Shown here piece by piece: positions 2,467 through 12,174 of a stretch of 64,000 nucleotides of DNA (position 1 is its first letter; each line of letters opens with the position of its first letter). A program made the position numbers and the translations under genes. The notes beneath the pieces are model-generated. The model ran no database searches. It had not been told where the DNA came from and was given only the letters and a program-made list of their open reading frames with translations. The DNA is from a bacterium (lineage in GTDB: Bacteria > UBA8248), in contig CBDBEV010000001.1 in the NCBI GenBank assembly GCA_965204535.1, positions 1,312,001 through 1,376,000 on the forward strand, in the 5' to 3' direction.

Positions 2467-2500
2467 TGGAGTTTCGGCTCGCGACGCAGGAAGTATGAAC

Positions 2501-3529
2501 ATGGCGGAAACCATGCGGGCGGCGGTGTATTACCGAAACGACGACGTGCGGATCGAGGAGATGGCGAAGCCCCGCGCCGGGGCGGGCGAGCTTTTGGTCG
2601 AGACGCGCGCGAGCGGCATCTGCGGCAGCGACGTAATGGAATGGTACCGGGTGAAGAGCGCGCCGCGCGTCTTGGGCCACGAGGTGACGGGCGTCGTCGC
2701 GCAAGCGGGCGAGGGTGTGGCGGGTTTTCGCGCAGGCGATCGCGTCTGCGTCACCCATCACGTGCCCTGTAATGCCTGCGCGCATTGCCTGCGCGGCGAC
2801 CACACGGCTTGTGAGATGCTGAAAGCTACGAATTTCGACCCGGGCGGTTTCGCCGAGTTCATCCGCTTGCCCGCCGTCAACGTGGATCGGGGGACGTTCC
2901 GCCTGCCCGATGAGGTTTCGGACGATGCGGGCGTGTTCGTCGAGCCGCTGGGCTGCGTCCTGCGCGGCTGGCGGCGCTTCCGGATGACGCCGGGCCTCTC
3001 CGTCCTCGTGGTGGGAAGCGGGATGTCGGGCCTGTTGCATGTGCAGGCGGCGCGCATCCTGGGAGCGGGAGCCATATTCGCGGCGGACGTCCATCCCTGG
3101 CGTCTCGAAGCCGCCGAGCGGTTCGGCGCGCATGCGCTGCCCCCGTGCGAAGATATGGCGGAGGCCTTACGGGAGGCGAACGAGGGCCGCCTGGCGGATC
3201 GCGTCATCCTGTGCGCTGGCGTGCCCGAGGCTCTTAAGACGGCCCTCGCGTGCGTCGCGACCTGCGGCGTCTTGCAGCTTTTCGCCCCCACACCGCCGGG
3301 ATACCGTCCTGAAATCGACCTCAACCGAATCTGGAGCGAGCAGATCGCCATCACCACCACCTATGGCGCGGCGCCGCTCGATCTCGAAGAAGCGCTCGCG
3401 CTCATACGCGCCGGCCGCATCGAGGTCGGGGAGATGGTCACCCACAGGCTCCCGCTCGCGCAGGCGCAGGAGGGCTTCCGCCTCGTCGCCGAGGCGGGCG
3501 AATCACTGAAAGTTGTGCTCAAACCCTGA
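2501..3529 (+). CDS. Zn-dependent dehydrogenase (MDR family, L-iditol/threonine dehydrogenase-like)
   Basis: GICGSD, GHE, structural-Zn CNACAHCLRGDHTAC, GSGMSG nucleotide-binding loop, C-terminal ESLKVVLKP. Confidence 0.9.
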   Translation: MAETMRAAVYYRNDDVRIEEMAKPRAGAGELLVETRASGICGSDVMEWYRVKSAPRVLGHEVTGVVAQAGEGVAGFRAGDRVCVTHHVPCNACAHCLRGDHTACEMLKATNFDPGGFAEFIRLPAVNVDRGTFRLPDEVSDDAGVFVEPLGCVLRGWRRFRMTPGLSVLVVGSGMSGLLHVQAARILGAGAIFAADVHPWRLEAAERFGAHALPPCEDMAEALREANEGRLADRVILCAGVPEALKTALACVATCGVLQLFAPTPPGYRPEIDLNRIWSEQIAITTTYGAAPLDLEEALALIRAGRIEVGEMVTHRLPLAQAQEGFRLVAEAGESLKVVLKP

Positions 3530-3544
3530 TCGCAAGCCCGAATC

Positions 3545-3573
3545 TTGCGGGGGAGCGCGAAAGAGATTAGTAT
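3545..3573 (+). promoter_or_regulatory. sigma70-like promoter of unit 1
   Basis: TTGCGG-N17-TAGTAT. Confidence 0.7.
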
Positions 3574-3664
3574 TTTTCCGAGAAAGCGAGCAACGCAGGG
3601 CAGGGCGCTCTGGGTCCACGAGGTTGTTCGGTTTTTTGTTGGTGGACTCGCAAGGAGGAAGGAA

Positions 3665-3871
3665 GTGACGACTTTTCAAATCGCGACGCTGGTTGCATTG
3701 GGCATTCAGAGCGCAATAGCTCTTGGTGTGGGAAGCGTTCAGTGTATCCTGATATGGAAGGGCTTGCGACAGATGGAGCGCGCCTCGGAGTTCAGGGAAA
3801 GAGAGAGCGCAAGACGGCACGAGGAATCCATGACCGCGCTCAAGGCGCTCATCGAGCGGACGGCGAAGTAA
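3665..3871 (+). CDS. Small membrane-anchored coiled-coil protein, copy 1 (68 aa)
   Basis: GTG start after AAGGAGG; hydrophobic N-terminus then charged helix; four paralogues downstream. Confidence 0.85.
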   Translation: MTTFQIATLVALGIQSAIALGVGSVQCILIWKGLRQMERASEFRERESARRHEESMTALKALIERTAK

Positions 3872-3895
3872 CTTCTACTTCCCGCCGGCCAACCC

Positions 3896-3925
3896 GCCCC
3901 CGTCTTTCGGGAAGGGGGCTTTTCT
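3896..3925 (+). terminator. Intrinsic terminator of unit 1
   Basis: GCCCCCGTCT-TTCG-GGAAGGGGGC then TTTTCT. Confidence 0.7.
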
Positions 3926-4011
3926 GTTGCTCGATTGTTCTCTGCCCATCATCTGTTTTGGGAATCTCTCCAGGTGGCGTTTAGACCTTGGGTCGCGCGA
4001 AGAACCGGATA

Positions 4012-4040
4012 TTGCGGGGGAGTGCGAAAGGGGATAGTGT
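4012..4040 (+). promoter_or_regulatory. sigma70-like promoter of unit 2
   Basis: TTGCGG-N17-TAGTGT. Confidence 0.65.
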
Positions 4041-4120
4041 TATATCCAGGATTGCGGGCCATGGGACGCGAGGCTGTGGCGTTTCGCATTTGAGAGTCAA
4101 GGACCCGGGAGGAGAAGGAA

Positions 4121-4423
4121 GTGACGACTTTTCAAATCGCGACGCTGGTGGCATTGGGCATTCAGAGCGCAATAGCTCTTGGTGTAGGAAGCGTTCAGTG
4201 TATCCTGATATGGAAAGGCTTGCGACAGATGGAGCGCGCCTCGGAGTTCAGGGAAAGAGAGAGCGCTAGACGGCACGAGGAAGTCATGATGGAGGGTGCG
4301 AGGCGGCACGAGGAGGTTATGAAGAATCACGCCGAGAACATGAAAAATCATGAGGAAAACATGAAAAAACATGAGGAGTCGATGACCGCGCTCAAAACGC
4401 TCATCGAGCGGACAGGGAAGTAA
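4121..4423 (+). CDS. Small membrane-anchored coiled-coil protein, copy 2 (100 aa)
   Basis: Same N- and C-terminal blocks as copy 1 with a 32-aa (11+7+7+7) insertion of HEE-type repeats. Confidence 0.88.
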   Translation: MTTFQIATLVALGIQSAIALGVGSVQCILIWKGLRQMERASEFRERESARRHEEVMMEGARRHEEVMKNHAENMKNHEENMKKHEESMTALKTLIERTGK

Positions 4424-4448
4424 CCTCTACTTCCCGCCGGCCAACCCG

Positions 4449-4476
4449 CCCCCGTCCTCCGGGACGGGGGTTTTCT
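4449..4476 (+). terminator. Intrinsic terminator of unit 2
   Basis: CCCCCGTCC-TCCG-GGACGGGGG then TTTTCT. Confidence 0.8.
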
Positions 4477-4562
4477 GTTGATCGATGGTTCTCTGCCCAC
4501 CATCTGTTTTGGGAATCTCTCAAGGTGGCGGTTAGGCCTTGGGTCGCGCGAAGAACCGGATA

Positions 4563-4591
4563 TTGCGGTCGGTTGCGAAAGAGATTAGTAT
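4563..4591 (+). promoter_or_regulatory. sigma70-like promoter of unit 3
   Basis: TTGCGG-N17-TAGTAT. Confidence 0.7.
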
Positions 4592-4681
4592 TTTTCTGAG
4601 AAAGCGAGCAACGCAGGGCAGGACGCTCTGGGTCCACGAGGTTGTTCGATTTATTGATGGTGGACTCGTAAGGAGAAAGAA

Positions 4682-4942
4682 GTGACGACTTTTCAAATCG
4701 CGACGCTGGTGGCATTGGGCATCCAGAGCGCAATAGCTCTTGGTGTAGGAAGTGTTCAGTGTATCCTGATATGGAAGGGCTTGAGGCAGATGGAGCGCGC
4801 CTCGGAGTTCAGGGAAAGAGAGAGCGCAAGACGGCACGAGGAAGTCATGAGGGAGGGCGCGAGACGGCACGAAGAGAACATGAAAAAACATGAGCAGTCC
4901 ATGACCGCGCTCAAGACGCTCATCGAGCGGACAGGGAAGTAA
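4682..4942 (+). CDS. Small membrane-anchored coiled-coil protein, copy 3 (86 aa)
   Basis: Paralogue with an 18-aa (11+7) insertion. Confidence 0.88.
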   Translation: MTTFQIATLVALGIQSAIALGVGSVQCILIWKGLRQMERASEFRERESARRHEEVMREGARRHEENMKKHEQSMTALKTLIERTGK

Positions 4943-4967
4943 CCTCTACTTCCCGCCGGCTACTCCG

Positions 4968-4998
4968 CCCCCGTCCTCCGGGACGGGGGTTTTCTTTT
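4968..4998 (+). terminator. Intrinsic terminator of unit 3
   Basis: CCCCCGTCC-TCCG-GGACGGGGG then TTTTCTTTT. Confidence 0.8.
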
Positions 4999-5081
4999 GT
5001 TCGATGGTTCTCTGCCCACCATCTGTTTTGGGAATCTCTCAAGGTGGCGGTTAGGCCTTGGGTCGCGAGAAGCACCGAATC

Positions 5082-5110
5082 TTGCGGTCGAGCGCGAAAG
5101 AGATTAGTAT
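5082..5110 (+). promoter_or_regulatory. sigma70-like promoter of unit 4
   Basis: TTGCGG-N17-TAGTAT. Confidence 0.7.
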
Positions 5111-5200
5111 TTTTCCGAGAAAGCGAGCAACGCAGGGCAGGGCGCTCTGGGTCCACGAGGTTGTTCGGTTTTTGTTGGTGGACTCGCAAGGAGGAAGGAA

Positions 5201-5428
5201 GTGACGACTTTTCAAATCGCGACGCTGGTGGCATTGGGCATTCAGAGCGCAATAGCTCTTGGTGTGGGAAGCGTTCAGTGTATCCTGATATGGAAGGGCT
5301 TGCGACAGATGGAGCGCGCCTCGGAGTTCAGGGAAAGAGAAAGTGCGAGACGGCATGAGGAAAACATGAAAAAACATGAGGAATCGATGACCGCACTCAA
5401 GACGCTCATCGAGCGGACAGGGAAGTAA
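5201..5428 (+). CDS. Small membrane-anchored coiled-coil protein, copy 4 (75 aa)
   Basis: Paralogue with a 7-aa insertion (NMKKHEE). Confidence 0.88.
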   Translation: MTTFQIATLVALGIQSAIALGVGSVQCILIWKGLRQMERASEFRERESARRHEENMKKHEESMTALKTLIERTGK

Positions 5429-5453
5429 CCTCTACTTCCCGCCGGCTACTCCG

Positions 5454-5481
5454 CCCCCGTCCTCCGGGCCGGGGGTTTTCT
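5454..5481 (+). terminator. Intrinsic terminator of unit 4
   Basis: CCCCCGTCC-TCCG-GGCCGGGGG then TTTTCT. Confidence 0.75.
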
Positions 5482-5567
5482 GTTGCTCGATTGTTCTCTG
5501 CCCACCATCTGTTTTGGGAATCTTTCAAGGTGACTTTTAGGCCTTGAGTCGCGCGCAGAGCCGGATA

Positions 5568-5596
5568 TTGCGGGAGTACGCGAAAGGGGATAGTGT
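5568..5596 (+). promoter_or_regulatory. sigma70-like promoter of unit 5
   Basis: TTGCGG-N17-TAGTGT. Confidence 0.65.
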
Positions 5597-5676
5597 TATA
5601 CTCAGGATTGCGGGCCATGGAACGCGAGGCCGTGGAGTTCGCAGGGTGAATACGAAAGACCCGAGAGGAAAAAGAG

Positions 5677-5871
5677 ATGACGACTTTCCAAATCGCAACG
5701 CTCGGGTTCTACGCCGTGCAGTCCCTCATCGGCCTCGCGCAGTGCGCCCTCATCCTGATGGGCTTGAGGCAGATGAGCCGCGCCTCGGAGTTCAGGGAAA
5801 GAGAGAGCGCTAGACGGCACGAGGAATCCATGACCGCGCTCAAGACGCTCATCGAGCGGACGGCGAAGTAA
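5677..5871 (+). CDS. Small membrane-anchored coiled-coil protein, copy 5 (64 aa, divergent TM segment)
   Basis: MTTFQIATL start and RASEFRERESARRHEESMTALKTLIERTAK tail are shared; the hydrophobic segment differs. Confidence 0.85.
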   Translation: MTTFQIATLGFYAVQSLIGLAQCALILMGLRQMSRASEFRERESARRHEESMTALKTLIERTAK

Positions 5872-5896
5872 TCTCTACTTCCCGCCGGACAACCCG

Positions 5897-5927
5897 CCCC
5901 CGGCCTCCGGGATGGGGGTTTTTCTTT
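5897..5927 (+). terminator. Intrinsic terminator of unit 5 (its T tract is the IS target site)
   Basis: CCCCCGGCC-TCCG-GGATGGGGG then TTTTTCTTT. Confidence 0.7.
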
Positions 5928-5961
5928 GGGAATTATATACTAAGTTACCCAAGCGGCATGT

Positions 5962-6111
5962 TTAGGCGTGCTTTTTCTTGAGGTAGCGCCAGTTCTTTTT
6001 GGGCGGTCGCTGCATGATCGCGCGCGCTACATTCTCCGGTGTGTCATGTATCGGTTTAGGCATTGGGTTGGATGGTCGACCTACTGGTTTCTTGTTAGTT
6101 TCTTCTCTCAT
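5962..6111 (-). CDS. Small basic hypothetical protein at the IS end (49 aa)
   Basis: ATG after GAAGGGGG; GRPSNPMPKPIHDTPENVARAIMQRPPKKNWRYL; stops just inside the TIR. Confidence 0.55.
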   Translation of the reverse strand: MREETNKKPVGRPSNPMPKPIHDTPENVARAIMQRPPKKNWRYLKKKHA

Positions 6112-6358
6112 ATGAAGCCCCCTTCTAGGCATACTAGCGAACGCACACTCATCCTTCAAATTAAAATTTGACACAACTTACCCAACATTGCATTATCGTA
6201 TGAGCCAAACATCTGCATGTGGTCCTGAAAGTCGGGCCGCCTGCTGAATACAAAACCGCTCCCAGCGGAAATAAGCAGGGTCTCACCCAAAACGTGCAGA
6301 TGTTTGGCGACCGACCCGGCCTCGCGGTGAGGCCAGGAAACTCCAAGGAGAAGTCGTC

Positions 6359-7750
6359 ATGTTTACCAAACACATCGCAGTGGTTCTTTTCCTGTTGGTT
6401 TTCACGTTCGGTTGTGGTGGTGGGTCAATGCAGAGTGAACTGCCGGTTCAGAATTACTCAAGGCCAGCTTACCAAAACCCGAATTACCATCCCTATTTAA
6501 CGCCATCCAATGCTTACAGGTGGGAAAACACAATACATGTAGGTGGCGACGTTGAACCCCGCGATAAATTACGCCGGGTCGGAACTTTTGGCAGTATCAA
6601 GGTTTTCCAAGGAGCATCGCGTGATGGCGTCGGAAAGAAACGTCTGGAAAACTACGAACATGACCTGCTGACTCAAGACGATTCGACATCATCTTCGCGT
6701 GATGGATTCTATCCATTCAGAGTGGCTCCAAAGATTTGGCTTGAAGATGATTTTTACAGACTTCTCAGGGCAAATGATGAAAAAGCGGAAGGTCTTATAC
6801 AAGCATTGTTCGGAAGCGTTCGGATTCTCAACGATGCCCTTCCGCCTGAATTTCAAATCGACTTCACTACCGAAGATTCACCCCAAGTCGAGGGAACAAT
6901 CGCTATCGCATTTCGTTCCCCTGGTAGGATTGCGGAAATTTGCGGTAGTGCTGGGACTGTCGCATGCGCATCATCGGATGTTTTAAATTTGCACAACAAG
7001 ACGAATTCAGCCGTTATTTATTTTCCCGACAACCTGGACACATCAAAGAGGCAAACGACCCAAACGATAATACTCCATGAACTTTTGCATGCTCTTGGCA
7101 TTCAGGGACATGTGGACAGTATTGAATTTCCCGACTCGCTTATGGGCGCATACGGCGATTTTTTCCCGAACCCAGGGTTCGTATTGCACCGCATTGATCG
7201 AGAGATTTTACAAATTATGTACATGTCTCAACGGACGGATGACTACAATGATTGGGGTGAATGGAGTGATACGACCCTGCACATAACCGGAGAGTCTGTC
7301 GATGGGCACGTCAATTTCGGGGTGGCGCTGTTCAATGGTCTGCCACAACCTTGGGCGCGTGGCGTGGCACCTCGAAGTATGTTGAGCTTCGAGTCAAAAC
7401 CATCTTACTTGTTCGGGTCCGTTTCATGGAAAGGCTCTCTGTTAGGGTTCTCGGGGATATCTCCGGTTTACGGGGAAACCACACTCACTGTTGACATGGA
7501 CAACCTTGATGACGAACAAGACCTGAATTTCAGGAACCTGTTCTTCCTCAGTCGGTTCGAAGAAAGCGGAGCCGAAAGGTGGTTCCCTACTAGGAACATA
7601 GCCTACAAGGTGAAAATGTCACAACAAGGATTTTATCGTTCCGAAGATGACGGCCAAATTAGAGGCGTTTTCATCGGTCCAAGGCACGAGGGTATGGCAG
7701 GAACGCTCAAGCGCACAGACCTGGTCGGAGCATTCGGGGGGAAACGATAA
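6359..7750 (+). CDS. Lipoprotein, metzincin Zn-protease domain plus C-terminal TbpB-like beta-barrel
   Basis: Lipobox TFGC, HELLHALGIQGH (HExxHxxGxxH), Met-turn DSLMG, C-terminus GVFIGPRHEGMAGTLKRTDLVGAFGGKR; RBS AAGGAG. Confidence 0.8.
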   Translation: MFTKHIAVVLFLLVFTFGCGGGSMQSELPVQNYSRPAYQNPNYHPYLTPSNAYRWENTIHVGGDVEPRDKLRRVGTFGSIKVFQGASRDGVGKKRLENYEHDLLTQDDSTSSSRDGFYPFRVAPKIWLEDDFYRLLRANDEKAEGLIQALFGSVRILNDALPPEFQIDFTTEDSPQVEGTIAIAFRSPGRIAEICGSAGTVACASSDVLNLHNKTNSAVIYFPDNLDTSKRQTTQTIILHELLHALGIQGHVDSIEFPDSLMGAYGDFFPNPGFVLHRIDREILQIMYMSQRTDDYNDWGEWSDTTLHITGESVDGHVNFGVALFNGLPQPWARGVAPRSMLSFESKPSYLFGSVSWKGSLLGFSGISPVYGETTLTVDMDNLDDEQDLNFRNLFFLSRFEESGAERWFPTRNIAYKVKMSQQGFYRSEDDGQIRGVFIGPRHEGMAGTLKRTDLVGAFGGKR

Positions 7751-7751
7751 A

Positions 7752-8225
7752 ATGCTTAAACGAATTTTCGCAACTATAAGTATTTTTGTTCTGGGCATTT
7801 CAGGATGCGTTTCCGTTGAGGAATTGGCGCGGCAGGACTTGGGAACCATCGTCGAGCACAAGAGAATTTTCGTTGAATGCAAGGGAAAGCGATTTGCATT
7901 TAAGGAGTGGCTCGAAAAGGAAAAGAAGCATCTCCTGACAAAACATGAAATATCCACCAAATCAACCCAGACATACGCGAAATGCCTTGAAGAAAAGCTG
8001 GGTGTAATGTTCTGGGATCAGGTTCCTACGACCAGTCTTGATATTTTCTCCAAGACAACCTTGAGGTTCTACACCGGTGGAGACCATACCCTGGAAAGGT
8101 ATTTCGAGCGAGTCCGAAAGTGGCAACGAGTAATTCATGAAGGCGGCGAGCCGTGGAAGGGCTTCTGGCATGAACACAACGAAGTGATAGACAAGTGGCG
8201 AGCGATTTACAAGGACGCGAACTAG
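7752..8225 (+). CDS. Hypothetical lipoprotein (157 aa)
   Basis: Starts 1 bp after the protease stop; signal MLKRIFATISIFVLGISGC with lipobox. Confidence 0.7.
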   Translation: MLKRIFATISIFVLGISGCVSVEELARQDLGTIVEHKRIFVECKGKRFAFKEWLEKEKKHLLTKHEISTKSTQTYAKCLEEKLGVMFWDQVPTTSLDIFSKTTLRFYTGGDHTLERYFERVRKWQRVIHEGGEPWKGFWHEHNEVIDKWRAIYKDAN

Positions 8226-8235
8226 GAAGTTCATA

Positions 8236-8475
8236 TTAGACGGGAAGTGGAACGCCCCTTGAAAGCGCATCAGCTTCAATTCTTTTTATGCGGGTTTTCG
8301 TTTCTTTTATATCCACATCAAGGTTTTCTATTTCTACTATGGTTGGCCATCCACTTATGATGCGCTCTGGAAGAGGCACCTTGACCTCAAAACTATCGGT
8401 ATCATACTCCCATGAAAGAAATTCTATTGCTTCCTTTAGAATTTCGACTGTTGTTTCCTTCTTTTTTTCAAGCAT
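8236..8475 (-). CDS. Hypothetical protein, possibly frameshifted (true start may be GTG 8549)
   Basis: 79-aa ORF directly downstream of the transposase; adding one A to the A7 run (8462-8468) joins it to an upstream frame with an AGGA RBS. Confidence 0.4.
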   Translation of the reverse strand: MLEKKKETTVEILKEAIEFLSWEYDTDSFEVKVPLPERIISGWPTIVEIENLDVDIKETKTRIKRIEADALSRGVPLPV

Positions 8476-8560
8476 GCAAGGTGTTGTCTGACCTTTGCAT
8501 ATTCAATTATCGTTTGATCGGCTTGTTCTTCTTTTTCTTTCTCATTCACGCCATCAATCC

Positions 8561-9587
8561 TTAAAGTGGATACAGCCCCTTTCTCGGGAGCCTTTTCGTC
8601 AATTCTCGATACGTCAACCGCTTGTGGTCAAATCCTTGTGCCATTCTCTGCATTTGATCGGCAGTGTCAAGGGGCCGCTGGTTGTGGCGCCCCTCGAACT
8701 CGTTCACATAACGCTGTAGGTACTTGAACTCATCTTGTGGTAGGTGCCCATGTAACCGCGCTTGAGGAGCGCCCAGAACGATTCGACCCCGTTGGTGTGC
8801 GCTTGTTCCCTCACGTATTCTCCCGCGCTGTGTTTCACGGATTCATGTTCGAAATCGACCATACCCCGATAGGACGGATTATCGTCTATGTAGAGCGTCG
8901 CGCCCATGGCGGCGTTCTCTCGCACAAAGCCTTGCAAGGTGGGCTTGTCTGGTGAACCACCCCATTCCTCGCCAAGCTTCACTACTTCGGCGGAAATCCT
9001 GTTTGTTCCCGATCCTTCATCCCGATAACGGCGGTCTTGCCCACCGGTTCGCGTCCCGCTCGCAGCTTCTTGTTCGCGTGCTTGTTTCTCTCCTTGCCGC
9101 CGATGTAGGTCTCATCAACTTCTACTGGCCCTGTCATGGCATCGCCATCATCGAACAGAAACATACCTCCGTCCCATGTATCTTCTTCATCCTCCCACGC
9201 TTCCCTGATTCTGTGGCCTAGATGCCATGCGCTCTTTTGCGTGATGCCGAGGTCGCGGTGTAGCTTCATGCTGGAATGACCCTTGAAGTTGGTCGTCATG
9301 ATGTATATGGCAAATAACCACGTCTGGTAGCCAAGGGGGGAGGCGTGCATGAGAGTATCGGTTTTCACCGAGAAATCCTTGCGGCAATCACGGCAACGAT
9401 AGGGCTGAGGCTTGCGGGTCTTTCGTTCCTGCACATTCAGGCTCCTGCACTTCGGGCAACACACGCCATCCGGCCAGCGCGTCTTGATGAACCATTGCTC
9501 CGCCGCGTCATCATTGGGAAACATGCGGGTCAATTCGATGAGGGAAATGCCTTTGCGGTAATGTTTACCTGGGGCTTTCTGTGTCAT
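8561..9587 (-). pseudogene. IS1595-family transposase with two frameshifts
   Basis: Zn ribbon CPKC..CRDC, VEVDETYIGG, LYIDD, HTNGVESFWALLKRG, and in a third frame YLQRYVNEFEGRHN; single-base losses near 9006 and 8727. Confidence 0.9.
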
Positions 9588-9693
9588 GTAATTACCTCCT
9601 TTATTTTGGAAGCAATTTACCCTAACGGTATGAATTTGTCAAGTGGGTAACTTAGTATATAATTCCCTTTTCTTTTACACCGCTGATTGTCCG

Positions 9694-12174
9694 CTATTCA
9701 TCTACGGGGTGGTAGTTCAGTTCGCTCCCGGGCGGGGAATCGCCCTCGGTCGCTTCGTCCTCATAAAGAGCATCCGGCGGGGCGTCTTCCGTGAACTGCG
9801 TGTCATCCGCGTCCGCATCCTGCGGGGCGGGGGCGGGCTCCTTGAGAAGCGGGGCGAGTTTCGCCTCGCGGCGGATTCTTTCCGGCAGGCCGCTCCAGCG
9901 CCTCCTCACGCGCGCGTTTCCTATCGCCATGCCGAGCGCCTTTTTCGCCCCGACGAACACCGCCAGACGCTTCGCCCGCGTGAGGGCGGTGTAGACGAGG
10001 TTTCTCTGCAGCATCGGGAAGTGCTGGGTGTGGAGCGGGATGACGACGGCGGGGTATTCGCTCCCCTGGCTCTTGTGGACGGTGATGGCGTAGGCGTGCA
10101 TCACCTCATCGAGCGCGCCGCGCGTGTATTCGACGACGTTCGAATCGAAAGCGGCGCGAATGCTTCCCTCCTCCGGGGACACGCTCTTGACGACGCCGAT
10201 GTCGCCGTTGAACACGTCCTTGTCGTAGTTGTTGCGCACCTGGATGAGCTTGTCCCCGGTGCGGAACGTCCGGCCTCCGCTCTGGAGCGCGGGCGCGCTT
10301 CCGGCGGGGTTGAGCGCTTCCTGCAGGCGCGCGTTCAGGCTCTGCACGCCGAGCACGCCGCGCTGCATGGGGGAGATGACCTGGAGGTCGGCGATGGCGT
10401 CGATCTGGAACCGATCGGGAATGCGCTCGCGGCACAGTTCGATGATGAGGTCGGCGCAGCGCTCCGCCTCGCTCTCCTCGATGAAGTAATAGTCGAGCGG
10501 GGCGTCTTCTTTTTCCCCCTTGCCGTTTCGGGGCATCTCGCCGCGGTTCACGCGGTGGGCGTTCTCGACGATCAGGCTCTCCTGCGCCTGTCGGAAGACC
10601 TCCGTGAGCCGCGCCACGGGCAGGGTTTCCGACGTGATGACGTCGCTTAAGACGTTGCCGGGCCCCACGGAGGGGAGCTGGTCCACGTCGCCCACCAGGA
10701 CAAGCGTCGCCGGGTCGGGTACCGCGCGCAGCAGGTGGGCCGTCAGGTGTACGTCGAGCATCGAGGCCTCATCAATAATTACGATGTCGCCGGTGAGCGG
10801 GTTTTCCGCATCGCGGGTGAAGCCGCCCGAGTGCCAGCTGTATTCGAGCAGTCTGTGGATGGTGGCCGCCTCGTGGCCTGTGACTTCAGAAAGACGCTTG
10901 GCCGCCCGGCCCGTAGGGGCGCCGAGGATGACCTGGAGGCCGAGTTTCGTGTAGAGGTTCGTGACGGCGCTCACGATGGTCGTCTTGCCGGTGCCGGGGC
11001 CGCCCGTGACGATGAGCACTTTCTGCGTGAGCGCGCCCTCTATCGCCGCCCCCTGATCCTTCGTCGCCTTGCCGCCCTCGAGCGCGCGCCGGGCGAGATG
11101 GCCGAGACGCTCTTTCGTCGTGCTCCCGGGCGCTCCCTGTCCCCGCATGGCGGCTTCGAGACGCGCCTCGTCGCGCGGCGTGCGGATGAGCGCGGCGAGA
11201 CGGCGGGCGACCTCGCATTCCGCGGCGTAGAGCGGACGCGCGTAGACGCGCTTGCCCTCGGCCGAAGCGAGGTTCTCGACCATGTTCGCCGATTCGATCA
11301 CCACCGAGCCGCCCTGGCCCAGGTTCTCGAGAACGGGAGCGAGGGCGTCGGCTTCGGTCTCGAGCATCTCGGCGGCCGTCTCCATCAGGTCGCCGTAGGG
11401 CAGAAAGCAGTGGCCCTCGCGCTCGGCGAGCTGGTTTAGGACGTAGACGGCTCCCGCCGCCAGGCGTTTGGGAGAGTCAACGGGAATTCCCAGCTTCTGC
11501 GCGATGCGGTCCGCGCTCTTGAAGCCCACGCCGTGAATCTCTGACGCCAGGCGATAGGGGTCTTCGCGCAGAATCCGTATGGACGCCTCGCCGTAGGTTC
11601 TCAGGATTTTCTCGGATAGATGGAGCGGGACGTCGTATTGACGGAGAAAAAGCATGATCTCCTTGACCTCGCTCTGGCTCTTCCAGCTCTCGACGATGGC
11701 TTCGAGCTTCTTCGCGCCCAGACCGGCGACTTCCGTGAGGCGCTCGGGGTGGTTGTCGAGGATTTCGAGGGATTTCTCCCCGAAGCGCGTAACGATTCTC
11801 CTGGCGAGAGCGGGGCCGATGTTCTTCACGATGCCGGACGCCAGGTACTTTTCGATTCCCTCGATTGTCGTGGGTGTCAGCGGGCGGGCGAGCTCGGCGT
11901 GGAACTGGCGGCCGAACCTGGGGTGATCCTTCCAGCCGCCCTCGAAGCGCGCGCGCTCGCCCTCGCGGATGGAGGAGAGATAGCCCACAACGGCCACGCG
12001 GGGGAAATCCTCGTTGTCCGGCTGGACGAGCAGGACGCTGTAGCCGGTGTCCTCCGCGCGGAAGCGGATGCGCTCGACCGCGCCGGTCAGTTCGGTCCCG
12101 TCTTGCGGGAAGAGGCCCGCCTGGGGAGGAGGGGTCCTTCTTCCGGGGCGTGGTGTTCTCGGTTTGCGCGTCAT
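9694..12174 (-). CDS. recD2: ATP-dependent RecD2-like DNA helicase
   Basis: HhH region, TGGPGTGKTT, APTGRAAKRL, IIDEASM, VGDVDQLPSVGPG, AYAITVHKSQGSEY. Confidence 0.95.
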   Translation of the reverse strand: MTRKPRTPRPGRRTPPPQAGLFPQDGTELTGAVERIRFRAEDTGYSVLLVQPDNEDFPRVAVVGYLSSIREGERARFEGGWKDHPRFGRQFHAELARPLTPTTIEGIEKYLASGIVKNIGPALARRIVTRFGEKSLEILDNHPERLTEVAGLGAKKLEAIVESWKSQSEVKEIMLFLRQYDVPLHLSEKILRTYGEASIRILREDPYRLASEIHGVGFKSADRIAQKLGIPVDSPKRLAAGAVYVLNQLAEREGHCFLPYGDLMETAAEMLETEADALAPVLENLGQGGSVVIESANMVENLASAEGKRVYARPLYAAECEVARRLAALIRTPRDEARLEAAMRGQGAPGSTTKERLGHLARRALEGGKATKDQGAAIEGALTQKVLIVTGGPGTGKTTIVSAVTNLYTKLGLQVILGAPTGRAAKRLSEVTGHEAATIHRLLEYSWHSGGFTRDAENPLTGDIVIIDEASMLDVHLTAHLLRAVPDPATLVLVGDVDQLPSVGPGNVLSDVITSETLPVARLTEVFRQAQESLIVENAHRVNRGEMPRNGKGEKEDAPLDYYFIEESEAERCADLIIELCRERIPDRFQIDAIADLQVISPMQRGVLGVQSLNARLQEALNPAGSAPALQSGGRTFRTGDKLIQVRNNYDKDVFNGDIGVVKSVSPEEGSIRAAFDSNVVEYTRGALDEVMHAYAITVHKSQGSEYPAVVIPLHTQHFPMLQRNLVYTALTRAKRLAVFVGAKKALGMAIGNARVRRRWSGLPERIRREAKLAPLLKEPAPAPQDADADDTQFTEDAPPDALYEDEATEGDSPPGSELNYHPVDE

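Follow-up and report, generated by a model that had tools for sequence, protein, structure and literature searches.

The window analyzed here (64,000 nucleotides of the bacterial assembly GCA_965204535.1; contig CBDBEV010000001.1, positions 1,312,001 through 1,376,000; GTDB lineage UBA8248) carries, near its left end, an array of five small genes for proteins of an unnamed family. The five tandem units of 450 to 560 bp lie between a zinc-dehydrogenase gene and a convergent RecD2-like gene, and each contains one small open reading frame (ORF) on the + strand, preceded by a purine-rich ribosome site; in array order the ORFs encode 68, 100, 86, 75, and 64 residues. Between the constant ARRHEE and SMTALK blocks, the copies carry stalk inserts of 0, 32 (11+7+7+7), 18 (11+7), 7, and 0 residues, exactly the series described in the initial annotation of this DNA. 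That annotation also located a real array, but the genes begin ∼125 bases before the start it gave.

As far as can be told, the array is not an assembly artifact. Short-read contigs of run X1 span the copy 2 insert (4253 through 4426) with zero differences and at the same depth as the flanks (24), although this support is not independent because X1 is possibly the source sample; in 13 further genomes of the genus, one to four copies occupy the same site. Purifying selection acts on the constant parts (ratio of nonsynonymous to synonymous substitution rates, dN/dS, ∼0.11 over 608 of 630 pairs, those with very low or saturated silent divergence being omitted), and over codons 2 through 51 copies 1 to 4 show four to eight silent differences and no coding difference. 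Copy 5, whose membrane segment is four residues shorter than that of the other copies, represents a second lineage at the site.

Stalk Lengths Combine 7 and 11

It is textbook knowledge that steps of 7 or 11 residues keep a coiled coil in register, and the initial annotation had read the inserts in these terms. A survey of homologs agrees with it: stalk lengths combine 7 and 11 rather than being arbitrary. Among 194 unique close sequences (three further ones were dropped as truncated or mis-started), HxxxM-type motifs are spaced by 7, 11, or 18 residues in 452 of 478 cases, compared with a mean of 10% and a maximum of 23% for shuffled stalks; the exceptions are mostly an extra His within an 18-residue unit. 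A second set comprised 145 new representatives at 50% identity, some from the same genus, of which 118 could be anchored and 27 without an anchor were dropped. In these 118, 7, 11, or 18 residues separate successive motifs in 171 of 190 cases (8% on average and at most 43% in shuffled stalks), and all 78 stalks shorter than 60 residues have lengths of the form 7a+11b, falling on 14 distinct values. As 27 of the 46 possible lengths qualify, the probability over distinct lengths is 8e-5; stalks longer than 59 residues were left out because every integer above 59 qualifies.

The rule appears in each of four taxon sets defined by record title (95/95; 109 of 119 loci anchored), and stalk lengths have a periodicity peak at 3.6 (R 0.74, jittered maximum 0.30). 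Some members differ in length by 3 or 4, which is what an exchange of a heptad for a hendecad would produce. The repeat unit can be written as H(0), small(3), M(4), L/G/Q/S(7), and R(10), which fits 3-4-4 packing; the core positions follow 3-4 and 3-4-4 spacings, and length changes keep this register. Both periods are among the register-keeping periodicities described in excerpts of PMC4786415 and PMC9858780. The N-terminal side of the membrane segment grows too, mostly in heptads (21, 28, 32, 39, 46, 53, and 60 residues). In one subfamily (L002, L003, L005, L007, L009, L010, L016, and L019), this predicted outer side carries Gln-rich heptads such as LALQQAS, in up to five repeats that mirror stalk growth.

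Predicted Topology and Fold

The 118 anchored representatives share an order of parts: an acidic N terminus, a hydrophobic segment, an Arg, the repeat stalk, and a tip. The membrane segment contains a Gly in 96 and a Gln in 98 of them, followed by G[LI]xxM; the Arg stands seven residues past the membrane Met in 116, and the Leu, Ile, Arg, and Thr of the tip, HxExMxALxxLIERT, are each present in 113 to 117. By the positive-inside rule, the charge bias (on average 0.8 Lys/Arg before and 3.7 after the membrane segment) predicts a single-pass membrane protein with its N terminus outside and its C terminus inside.

An AlphaFold2 model of copy 2 is one continuous helix (residues 3 through 99; mean predicted local distance difference test score, pLDDT, 85.6). 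Three chains of copy 3 were modeled as a parallel, in-register homotrimer (pLDDT 84) with an interface score (interaction prediction score from aligned errors, ipSAE) of 0.69, compared with 0.00 in three controls, and runs agree in 87% of contacts; the mark used was reached by 20 of 30 solved homo-pairs and 1 of 23 single chains, a calibration that is only rough for three copies. This was the kind of homo-oligomer modeling that the initial annotation had proposed, and together with the 7a+11b lengths and the continuous helix it supports the idea that the steps preserve register. The contact stripe runs through I30 and M37 in the membrane, R44, S48, R51/H52, V55/M56, G59, R62/H63, N66, H70, S73/M74, L77, and L80/I81 to T84. 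The protein is predicted to form a parallel coiled coil, likely a trimer, from membrane to tip.

His and Met had been placed at putative core positions by the initial annotation. In the modeled trimer this holds for His52, His63, and His70, which lie at the interface, but Met is flanking: Met56 and Met74 touch, and Met67 is not among the listed contacts. His makes up 5.7% and Met 7.3% of stalk residues, and HxxxM is present in 134 of 142 representative stalks, being absent from the other 8 and from 3 of 27 scored paralogs. The motif is common and not required; the Arg and the LIERT tip are nearly invariant instead.

Distribution, Turnover, and Possible Function

This genome has 28 members by an iterative profile and a 29th by a broader one. 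In a survey of the phylum, a match was present in 21 of 22 genomes of the same genus, in 0 of 19 from the family's other genera, and in 1 of 9 from outside that family. This is a large protein family: a profile search gave 664 clusters at 50% identity, with the GTDB loci titled Nitrospinota, Binatia/Binatota, Entotheonella/Tectimicrobiota, Alphaproteobacteria, and Thermodesulfobacteriota or Deltaproteobacteria; two homologs carry the name "hypothetical protein, Nitrospinae bacterium." The family is patchily present, with matches in 30 of 201 genomes when the class containing a Binatia-titled genome was searched, in 6 of 17 for the phylum of an Entotheonella-titled one, and in 3 of 49 for an alphaproteobacterial order, bearing in mind that incomplete genomes cannot show absence. 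Genomes with the family usually have several matches, five singly inspected ones having 4 to 26 each, match counts not being copy numbers. Tandem arrays occur at 24 of 79 loci; one locus (L160) of a Binatia-titled genome (G058) with 26 matches overall has at least seven adjacent members, and an alphaproteobacterial locus (L145) has three. A tree of 47 constant columns interleaves the taxa (11 changes, minimum 3), and we claim no donor or direction of transfer because most of its forks are unresolved.

A pattern search of the Joint Genome Institute collection gave 98 hits, of which 10 were true relatives, and pieces of the locus are contained in sponge-metagenome-labeled runs from three studies (X4, X5, X10, and X16). 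The other lineages may be sponge-associated as well. In lineages of at least four phylum-level groups the family reaches tens of copies, and it is missing from most of their searched relatives, which makes it a candidate shared trait of co-living, partly sponge-associated bacteria. Searches of Pfam, NCBIfam, PHROGs, PADLOC, PDB sequences, and Rfam gave no significant match to the family; library scans yielded scattered one- or two-member matches, none of them at the curated cut-off for the array proteins. With the queries used, no relative was found in viral contigs (IMG/VR, two alignments), phages, or plasmids. In the open-access literature, searches by the family's features or hosts brought up no description of it, and a 2023 survey of hendecads (PubMed 37524272) could contain it. 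Within this genome, two identical paralogs with identical upstream DNA lie 1.6 Mb apart (C2:1069753-1070394 and C2:2695134-2695775), and identical weak tblastn hits near C1 187-215 kb repeat at both ends of C2; these recurrences suggest duplicated or overlapping assembly segments.

At the orthologous site, 36 copies in 14 genomes carry inserts of 0 (13 copies), 7 (6), 14 (7), 18 (2), 21 (2), 25 (4), 32, and 33 residues. Near-identical orthologs differ in length: the nearest relative (G002) reads 18/0/25/0, compared with 0/32/18/7/0 in the window (G000). The site is empty in G009 and G015 and the gene decayed in G010 (L164), where a 258-bp slot holds a frame-broken remnant of one unit (alignment score 172, shuffled maximum 97) that retains the promoter-like site, the leader, and the start of the gene. 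Other cargo occupies the site elsewhere: G001 and G007 have a small ORF paired with a gene for a DUF2335 membrane protein, the pair in G007 behind a similar promoter-like site, and G037 has a DUF429 gene together with one family member (L167:2627-3279, L168:2582-3215, and L166:2555-3157). As the cargo differs between genomes, the dehydrogenase-recD2 interval behaves like an accessory-gene slot.

On balance, we think it rather probable that the conserved ends are the working parts of these proteins and that the stalk is a register-locked spacer of tolerated, uncalibrated length. Five separately punctuated tandem genes would each give a single-pass protein, assembling into one continuous parallel coiled coil whose length would change as His-x3-Met repeat units are gained or lost. 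These units have common CAY-GAG anchors in their DNA, so that slippage or unequal exchange is a likely source of such changes. Only 7- and 11-residue steps are likely to survive, because they leave the membrane segment and tip on the same helix face; most likely, other steps are lost since they break helix packing, not since the lengths measure something. Because selection would pass those changes that leave the Arg and the tip on the same helix face as the membrane stripe, these ends are likely the working parts: the G..Q..G[LI]xxM stripe in the membrane, the Arg seven residues on, and the C-terminal HxExMxALxxLIERT tip. Most probably this would be an inner-membrane assembly presenting its tip to a cytoplasmic partner. 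The seam His and Met may make folding sensitive to soft metals or pH, a property that not every member would need. The family is also an unusually clean natural experiment in register, with stalks from 14 to >120 residues on a 7a+11b ladder and growth on both sides of a membrane helix, and the five copies are a ready length series with identical ends for studying register, hetero-assembly, and His/Met control by metal or pH.

Several points weigh against this reading. Quantized indels are expected of any coiled coil and so, alone, are silent on function; the P value is generous because relatives are not independent. An 8-residue unit occurs in P0013, P0038, P0061, and L043, giving an insert of 11+7+7+8 = 33 that is still 3 × 11, and there is one spacing of 12. 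The seam is broad (positions a, d, e, and g) with conserved Ala and could indicate a higher oligomer than the trimer, the only state modeled. The gene is dispensable at its site, as the empty and decayed loci show. Neighborhoods offer no candidate partner for the tip, with no neighbor recurring beyond orthologous sites in 79 loci, and neither do fusions, on the weak evidence of two longer proteins of which the one inspected (P0176) is a member with an unrelated tail.

Coiled coils that are multi-copy, anchored in the membrane, and variable in repeat number are also found among DUF1640/CCDC90 trimers and the Bdr paralogs of Borrelia, whose anchors are C-terminal. In contrast to DUF1640/CCDC90, the anchor of this family is N-terminal, the model is all-helical, and there is no Pfam match; the former type contains a β-layer motif, according to an excerpt of PMC4786415. 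Identity with the DUF1640/DUF3782 α/β coiled coil was rejected, given no Pfam match and an all-helical monomer model. Trimeric autotransporter stalks and FilP/Scy resemble the family in 7/11/18 periodicity, small residues beside the core, polar core residues, and intragenic repeat gain (excerpts of PMC4786415, PMC9858780, and PMC13580157), the core being taken here from the predicted trimer. Unlike them, the family is small (55 to 200 residues), has its predicted N-terminal membrane helix inside the same register, grows on both sides of the membrane, combines a His/Met seam with an invariant Arg and a LIERT tip, and has no Pfam or PDB match.

Molecular rulers of the tape-measure or YscP/FliK type are encoded with the structure that they measure and keep their length among orthologs. 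The initial annotation proposed that stalk length is itself the diversified trait, each copy setting a distance or pairing with partners of its own length. The array does hold four different lengths, tandem arrays are found at many loci, and copies 1 to 4, identical as far as the first HEE and almost identical in the tip, differ in little but length. Lengths within arrays, however, are no more diverse than chance (equal pairs 8 of 39, shuffled mean 7.5), the set of lengths at the orthologous site is not repeated between any two multi-copy genomes, orthologs vary, conserved neighbors include no structural or assembly gene, and nothing measurable is encoded nearby. With neither stable lengths nor anything to measure found, a ruler or length code is not supported, and we consider it very unlikely. 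Scarcely credible is the view that the inserts are neutral repeat instability or mis-assembly, without meaning for the protein. Tandem repeats of 450 to 560 bp fragment short-read assemblies, and loss and decay do occur, but this view is already largely refuted by the orthologous arrays in 13 genomes, the low dN/dS, and quantization in divergent subfamilies with unrelated repeat sequences.

The frequency of HxxxM and the His and Met content of the stalk, together with an H70-H70 contact and H52/H63 at the modeled interface, would suit a membrane-tethered metal sponge or sensor, in which each layer of the trimer core uses three His, with adjacent Met, to bind Cu(I), Ag(I), Zn, or Ni, metal induces folding, and unit number sets capacity. 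Trimers designed with His in the core fold in the presence of Cu or Ni (excerpt of PMC6713864), and SilE/PcoE likewise bear repeated His/Met motifs on one helix face; the heptad units here generate MxxH, one of the HxxM/MxxH motifs of SilE (excerpt of PMC5008109). SilE is, however, a soluble periplasmic protein of the sil operon in that account, whereas the present stalk is predicted to be cytoplasmic and is membrane-anchored, stand-alone, and based on HxxxM, a motif missing from some members; library, neighbor, and anatomy scans found neither a sil/pco-type locus nor a soluble periplasmic layout. Metal genes are atypical neighbors (1 of 60, a CbtA transporter beside a member without HxxxM), and polar core residues are common in natural trimers, for which the excerpt of PMC13580157 claims no metal role. 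A sponge or sensor of this kind is plausible but unlikely. A broader version, in which cross-phylum, habitat-linked trimers gain one His3/Met metal- or proton-binding layer with each heptad or hendecad, so that sponge-dwelling bacteria carry up to ∼30 metal-switched rods of graded capacity whose unbroken helix couples cytoplasmic metal or pH to tip and membrane, is possible but doubtful. Quite unlikely, in our view, is a stand-alone membrane defense or membrane-perturbing protein (akin to superinfection exclusion, a holin, or a type I toxin) that has spread among co-living bacteria. The self-contained units, with promoter-like sites upstream of 17 of 28 members compared with 154 of 1375 long ORFs, the patchy and usually multi-copy presence in unrelated lineages with fast turnover, and the DUF2335 and DUF429 cargo at the same site in other genomes would agree with it, as would the enrichment of defense genes in sponge symbionts (excerpt of PMC5649159). 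Set against these are strong purifying selection, absence from the viral, phage, and plasmid records searched, PADLOC hits that are single-member coiled-coil matches, and no Rfam antitoxin. The type I toxin arrays Ldr/Rdl and Ibs/Sib likewise consist of ∼500-bp tandem units with a promoter-like site, a structured leader, a small membrane-protein gene, and a terminator, but the proteins of this family are longer, with a soluble coiled coil, and have no Rfam match. A scan of the array found no antisense unit with a terminator, with relaxed minus-strand promoter-like matches at three of the five units. The layout is also that of BhlA/UviB/TpeE (PF10960), small proteins with an acidic N terminus, one membrane helix, and a charged helix (excerpt of PMC9527704), the topology here being taken from charge bias. 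Weak atlas leads (0.84 and 0.81) and PHROG 1625/1296 pointed to BhlA, an identity rejected on an HHalign probability of 1.5% against 19 BhlA-like proteins (three were checked against PF10960, all above its cut-off) and hidden Markov model cross-searches at E ≥ 0.07. The BhlA motifs TQG-PFA (membrane) and KxNxERE given in that excerpt are absent from the family, whose stalk is repeat-expanded; PF10960 matched no member in this genome, and no lysin or cargo gene was among 60 neighbors scanned.

Punctuation of the Units and Neighboring Features

A GC hairpin with a T tract follows every unit (four were found by a first terminator scan and all five by later scans). A strict sigma-70 scan of the window gave no promoter at the array units; TTGCGG-N17-TAGT(A/G)T precedes each unit and aligns across copies and genomes, but it is a relaxed pattern of our own that also matches within the coding regions of copies 1 to 4. 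In the leader hairpin, just 1 of 16 predicted pairs has a two-sided change, and covariation is not claimed. Coordinates are collected in Table 1.

Table 1. Positions of the array genes, their parts, and bordering features in the window
Feature	Positions	Strand	Remarks
Zinc-binding dehydrogenase gene	2495..3529	+	Conserved left border of the site
Copy 1 promoter-like site	3545..3573	+	TTGCGG-N17-TAGTAT; relaxed sigma-70-type pattern; aligns across copies and genomes
Copy 1	3665..3871	+	68 residues; stalk insert 0; predicted membrane segment ∼3698-3766; conserved Arg codon 3794; tip 3827-3871
Copy 1 terminator-like hairpin	3896..3923	+	GC hairpin and T tract
Copy 2 promoter-like site	4012..4040	+	TTGCGG-N17-TAGTGT; leader with predicted hairpin downstream
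Copy 2	4121..4423	+	100 residues; modeled as a single helix
Copy 2 stalk insert	4283..4378	+	VMMEGARRHEE-VMKNHAE-NMKNHEE-NMKKHEE (11+7+7+7)
Copy 2 terminator-like hairpin	4448..4474	+	
Copy 3 promoter-like site	4563..4591	+	Alignment across copies and genomes
Copy 3	4682..4942	+	86 residues; modeled as a parallel homotrimer
Copy 3 stalk insert	4844..4897	+	VMREGARRHEE-NMKKHEQ (11+7)
Copy 3 terminator-like hairpin	4967..4993	+	
Copy 4 promoter-like site	5082..5110	+	Alignment across copies and genomes
Copy 4	5201..5428	+	75 residues; insert NMKKHEE (7) at 5363-5383
Copy 4 terminator-like hairpin	5453..5479	+	
Copy 5 promoter-like site	5568..5596	+	Alignment across copies and genomes
Copy 5	5677..5871	+	64 residues; insert 0; "short" membrane-segment lineage
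Copy 5 terminator-like hairpin	5896..5923	+	
IS1595-family element	5928..9667	.	24-bp inverted repeats; 8-bp TTTTCTTT duplication; just past the copy 5 terminator
RecD2-like helicase gene	9694..12174	-	Conserved right border of the site; we take it to be RecD2-like from our own reading of the sequence

A leader motif, C[AG]CGAG, in many cases with GACCC between it and the ribosome site, is present upstream of 19 of 28 members and 260 of 2456 other long ORFs (in the array, for example, at 3617, 4067, 4635, 5154, and 5623); in other genomes it was found at 15 of 55, many starts there being mis-picked. It is possibly a shared regulatory site or a relic of common descent. Alignment of the inter-copy spacer with the 3' end of the dehydrogenase gene gave scores of 31 to 46 (shuffled maxima 39 to 44), which is only suggestive of an origin there, and alignment with the recD2 tail did not rise above shuffles.

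The IS1595-family insertion sequence (IS) is missing from all 13 orthologous loci and is no part of the stalk-gene system. Its inverted repeats are perfect, its transposase is split over two ORFs (8982-9587 and 8704-8982), and its passengers include a 463-residue ORF (6359-7750) with a lipoprotein-like signal and no Pfam match; loose short-read contig ends at 5928 suggest the same IS end joined to other flanks. Among the 60 scanned neighbors of scattered paralogs, unrelated metabolic genes predominate; some are transposases and integrases, and lysins and structural genes are absent. Several paralogs lie near large predicted lipoproteins that carry an ...LAGCGGGGG... signal, have no Pfam match, and appear to be a further expanded family in this genome (L004:235-1845, L010:4426-6087, L012:4529-6802, L016:5758-7788, and L019:754-2553).

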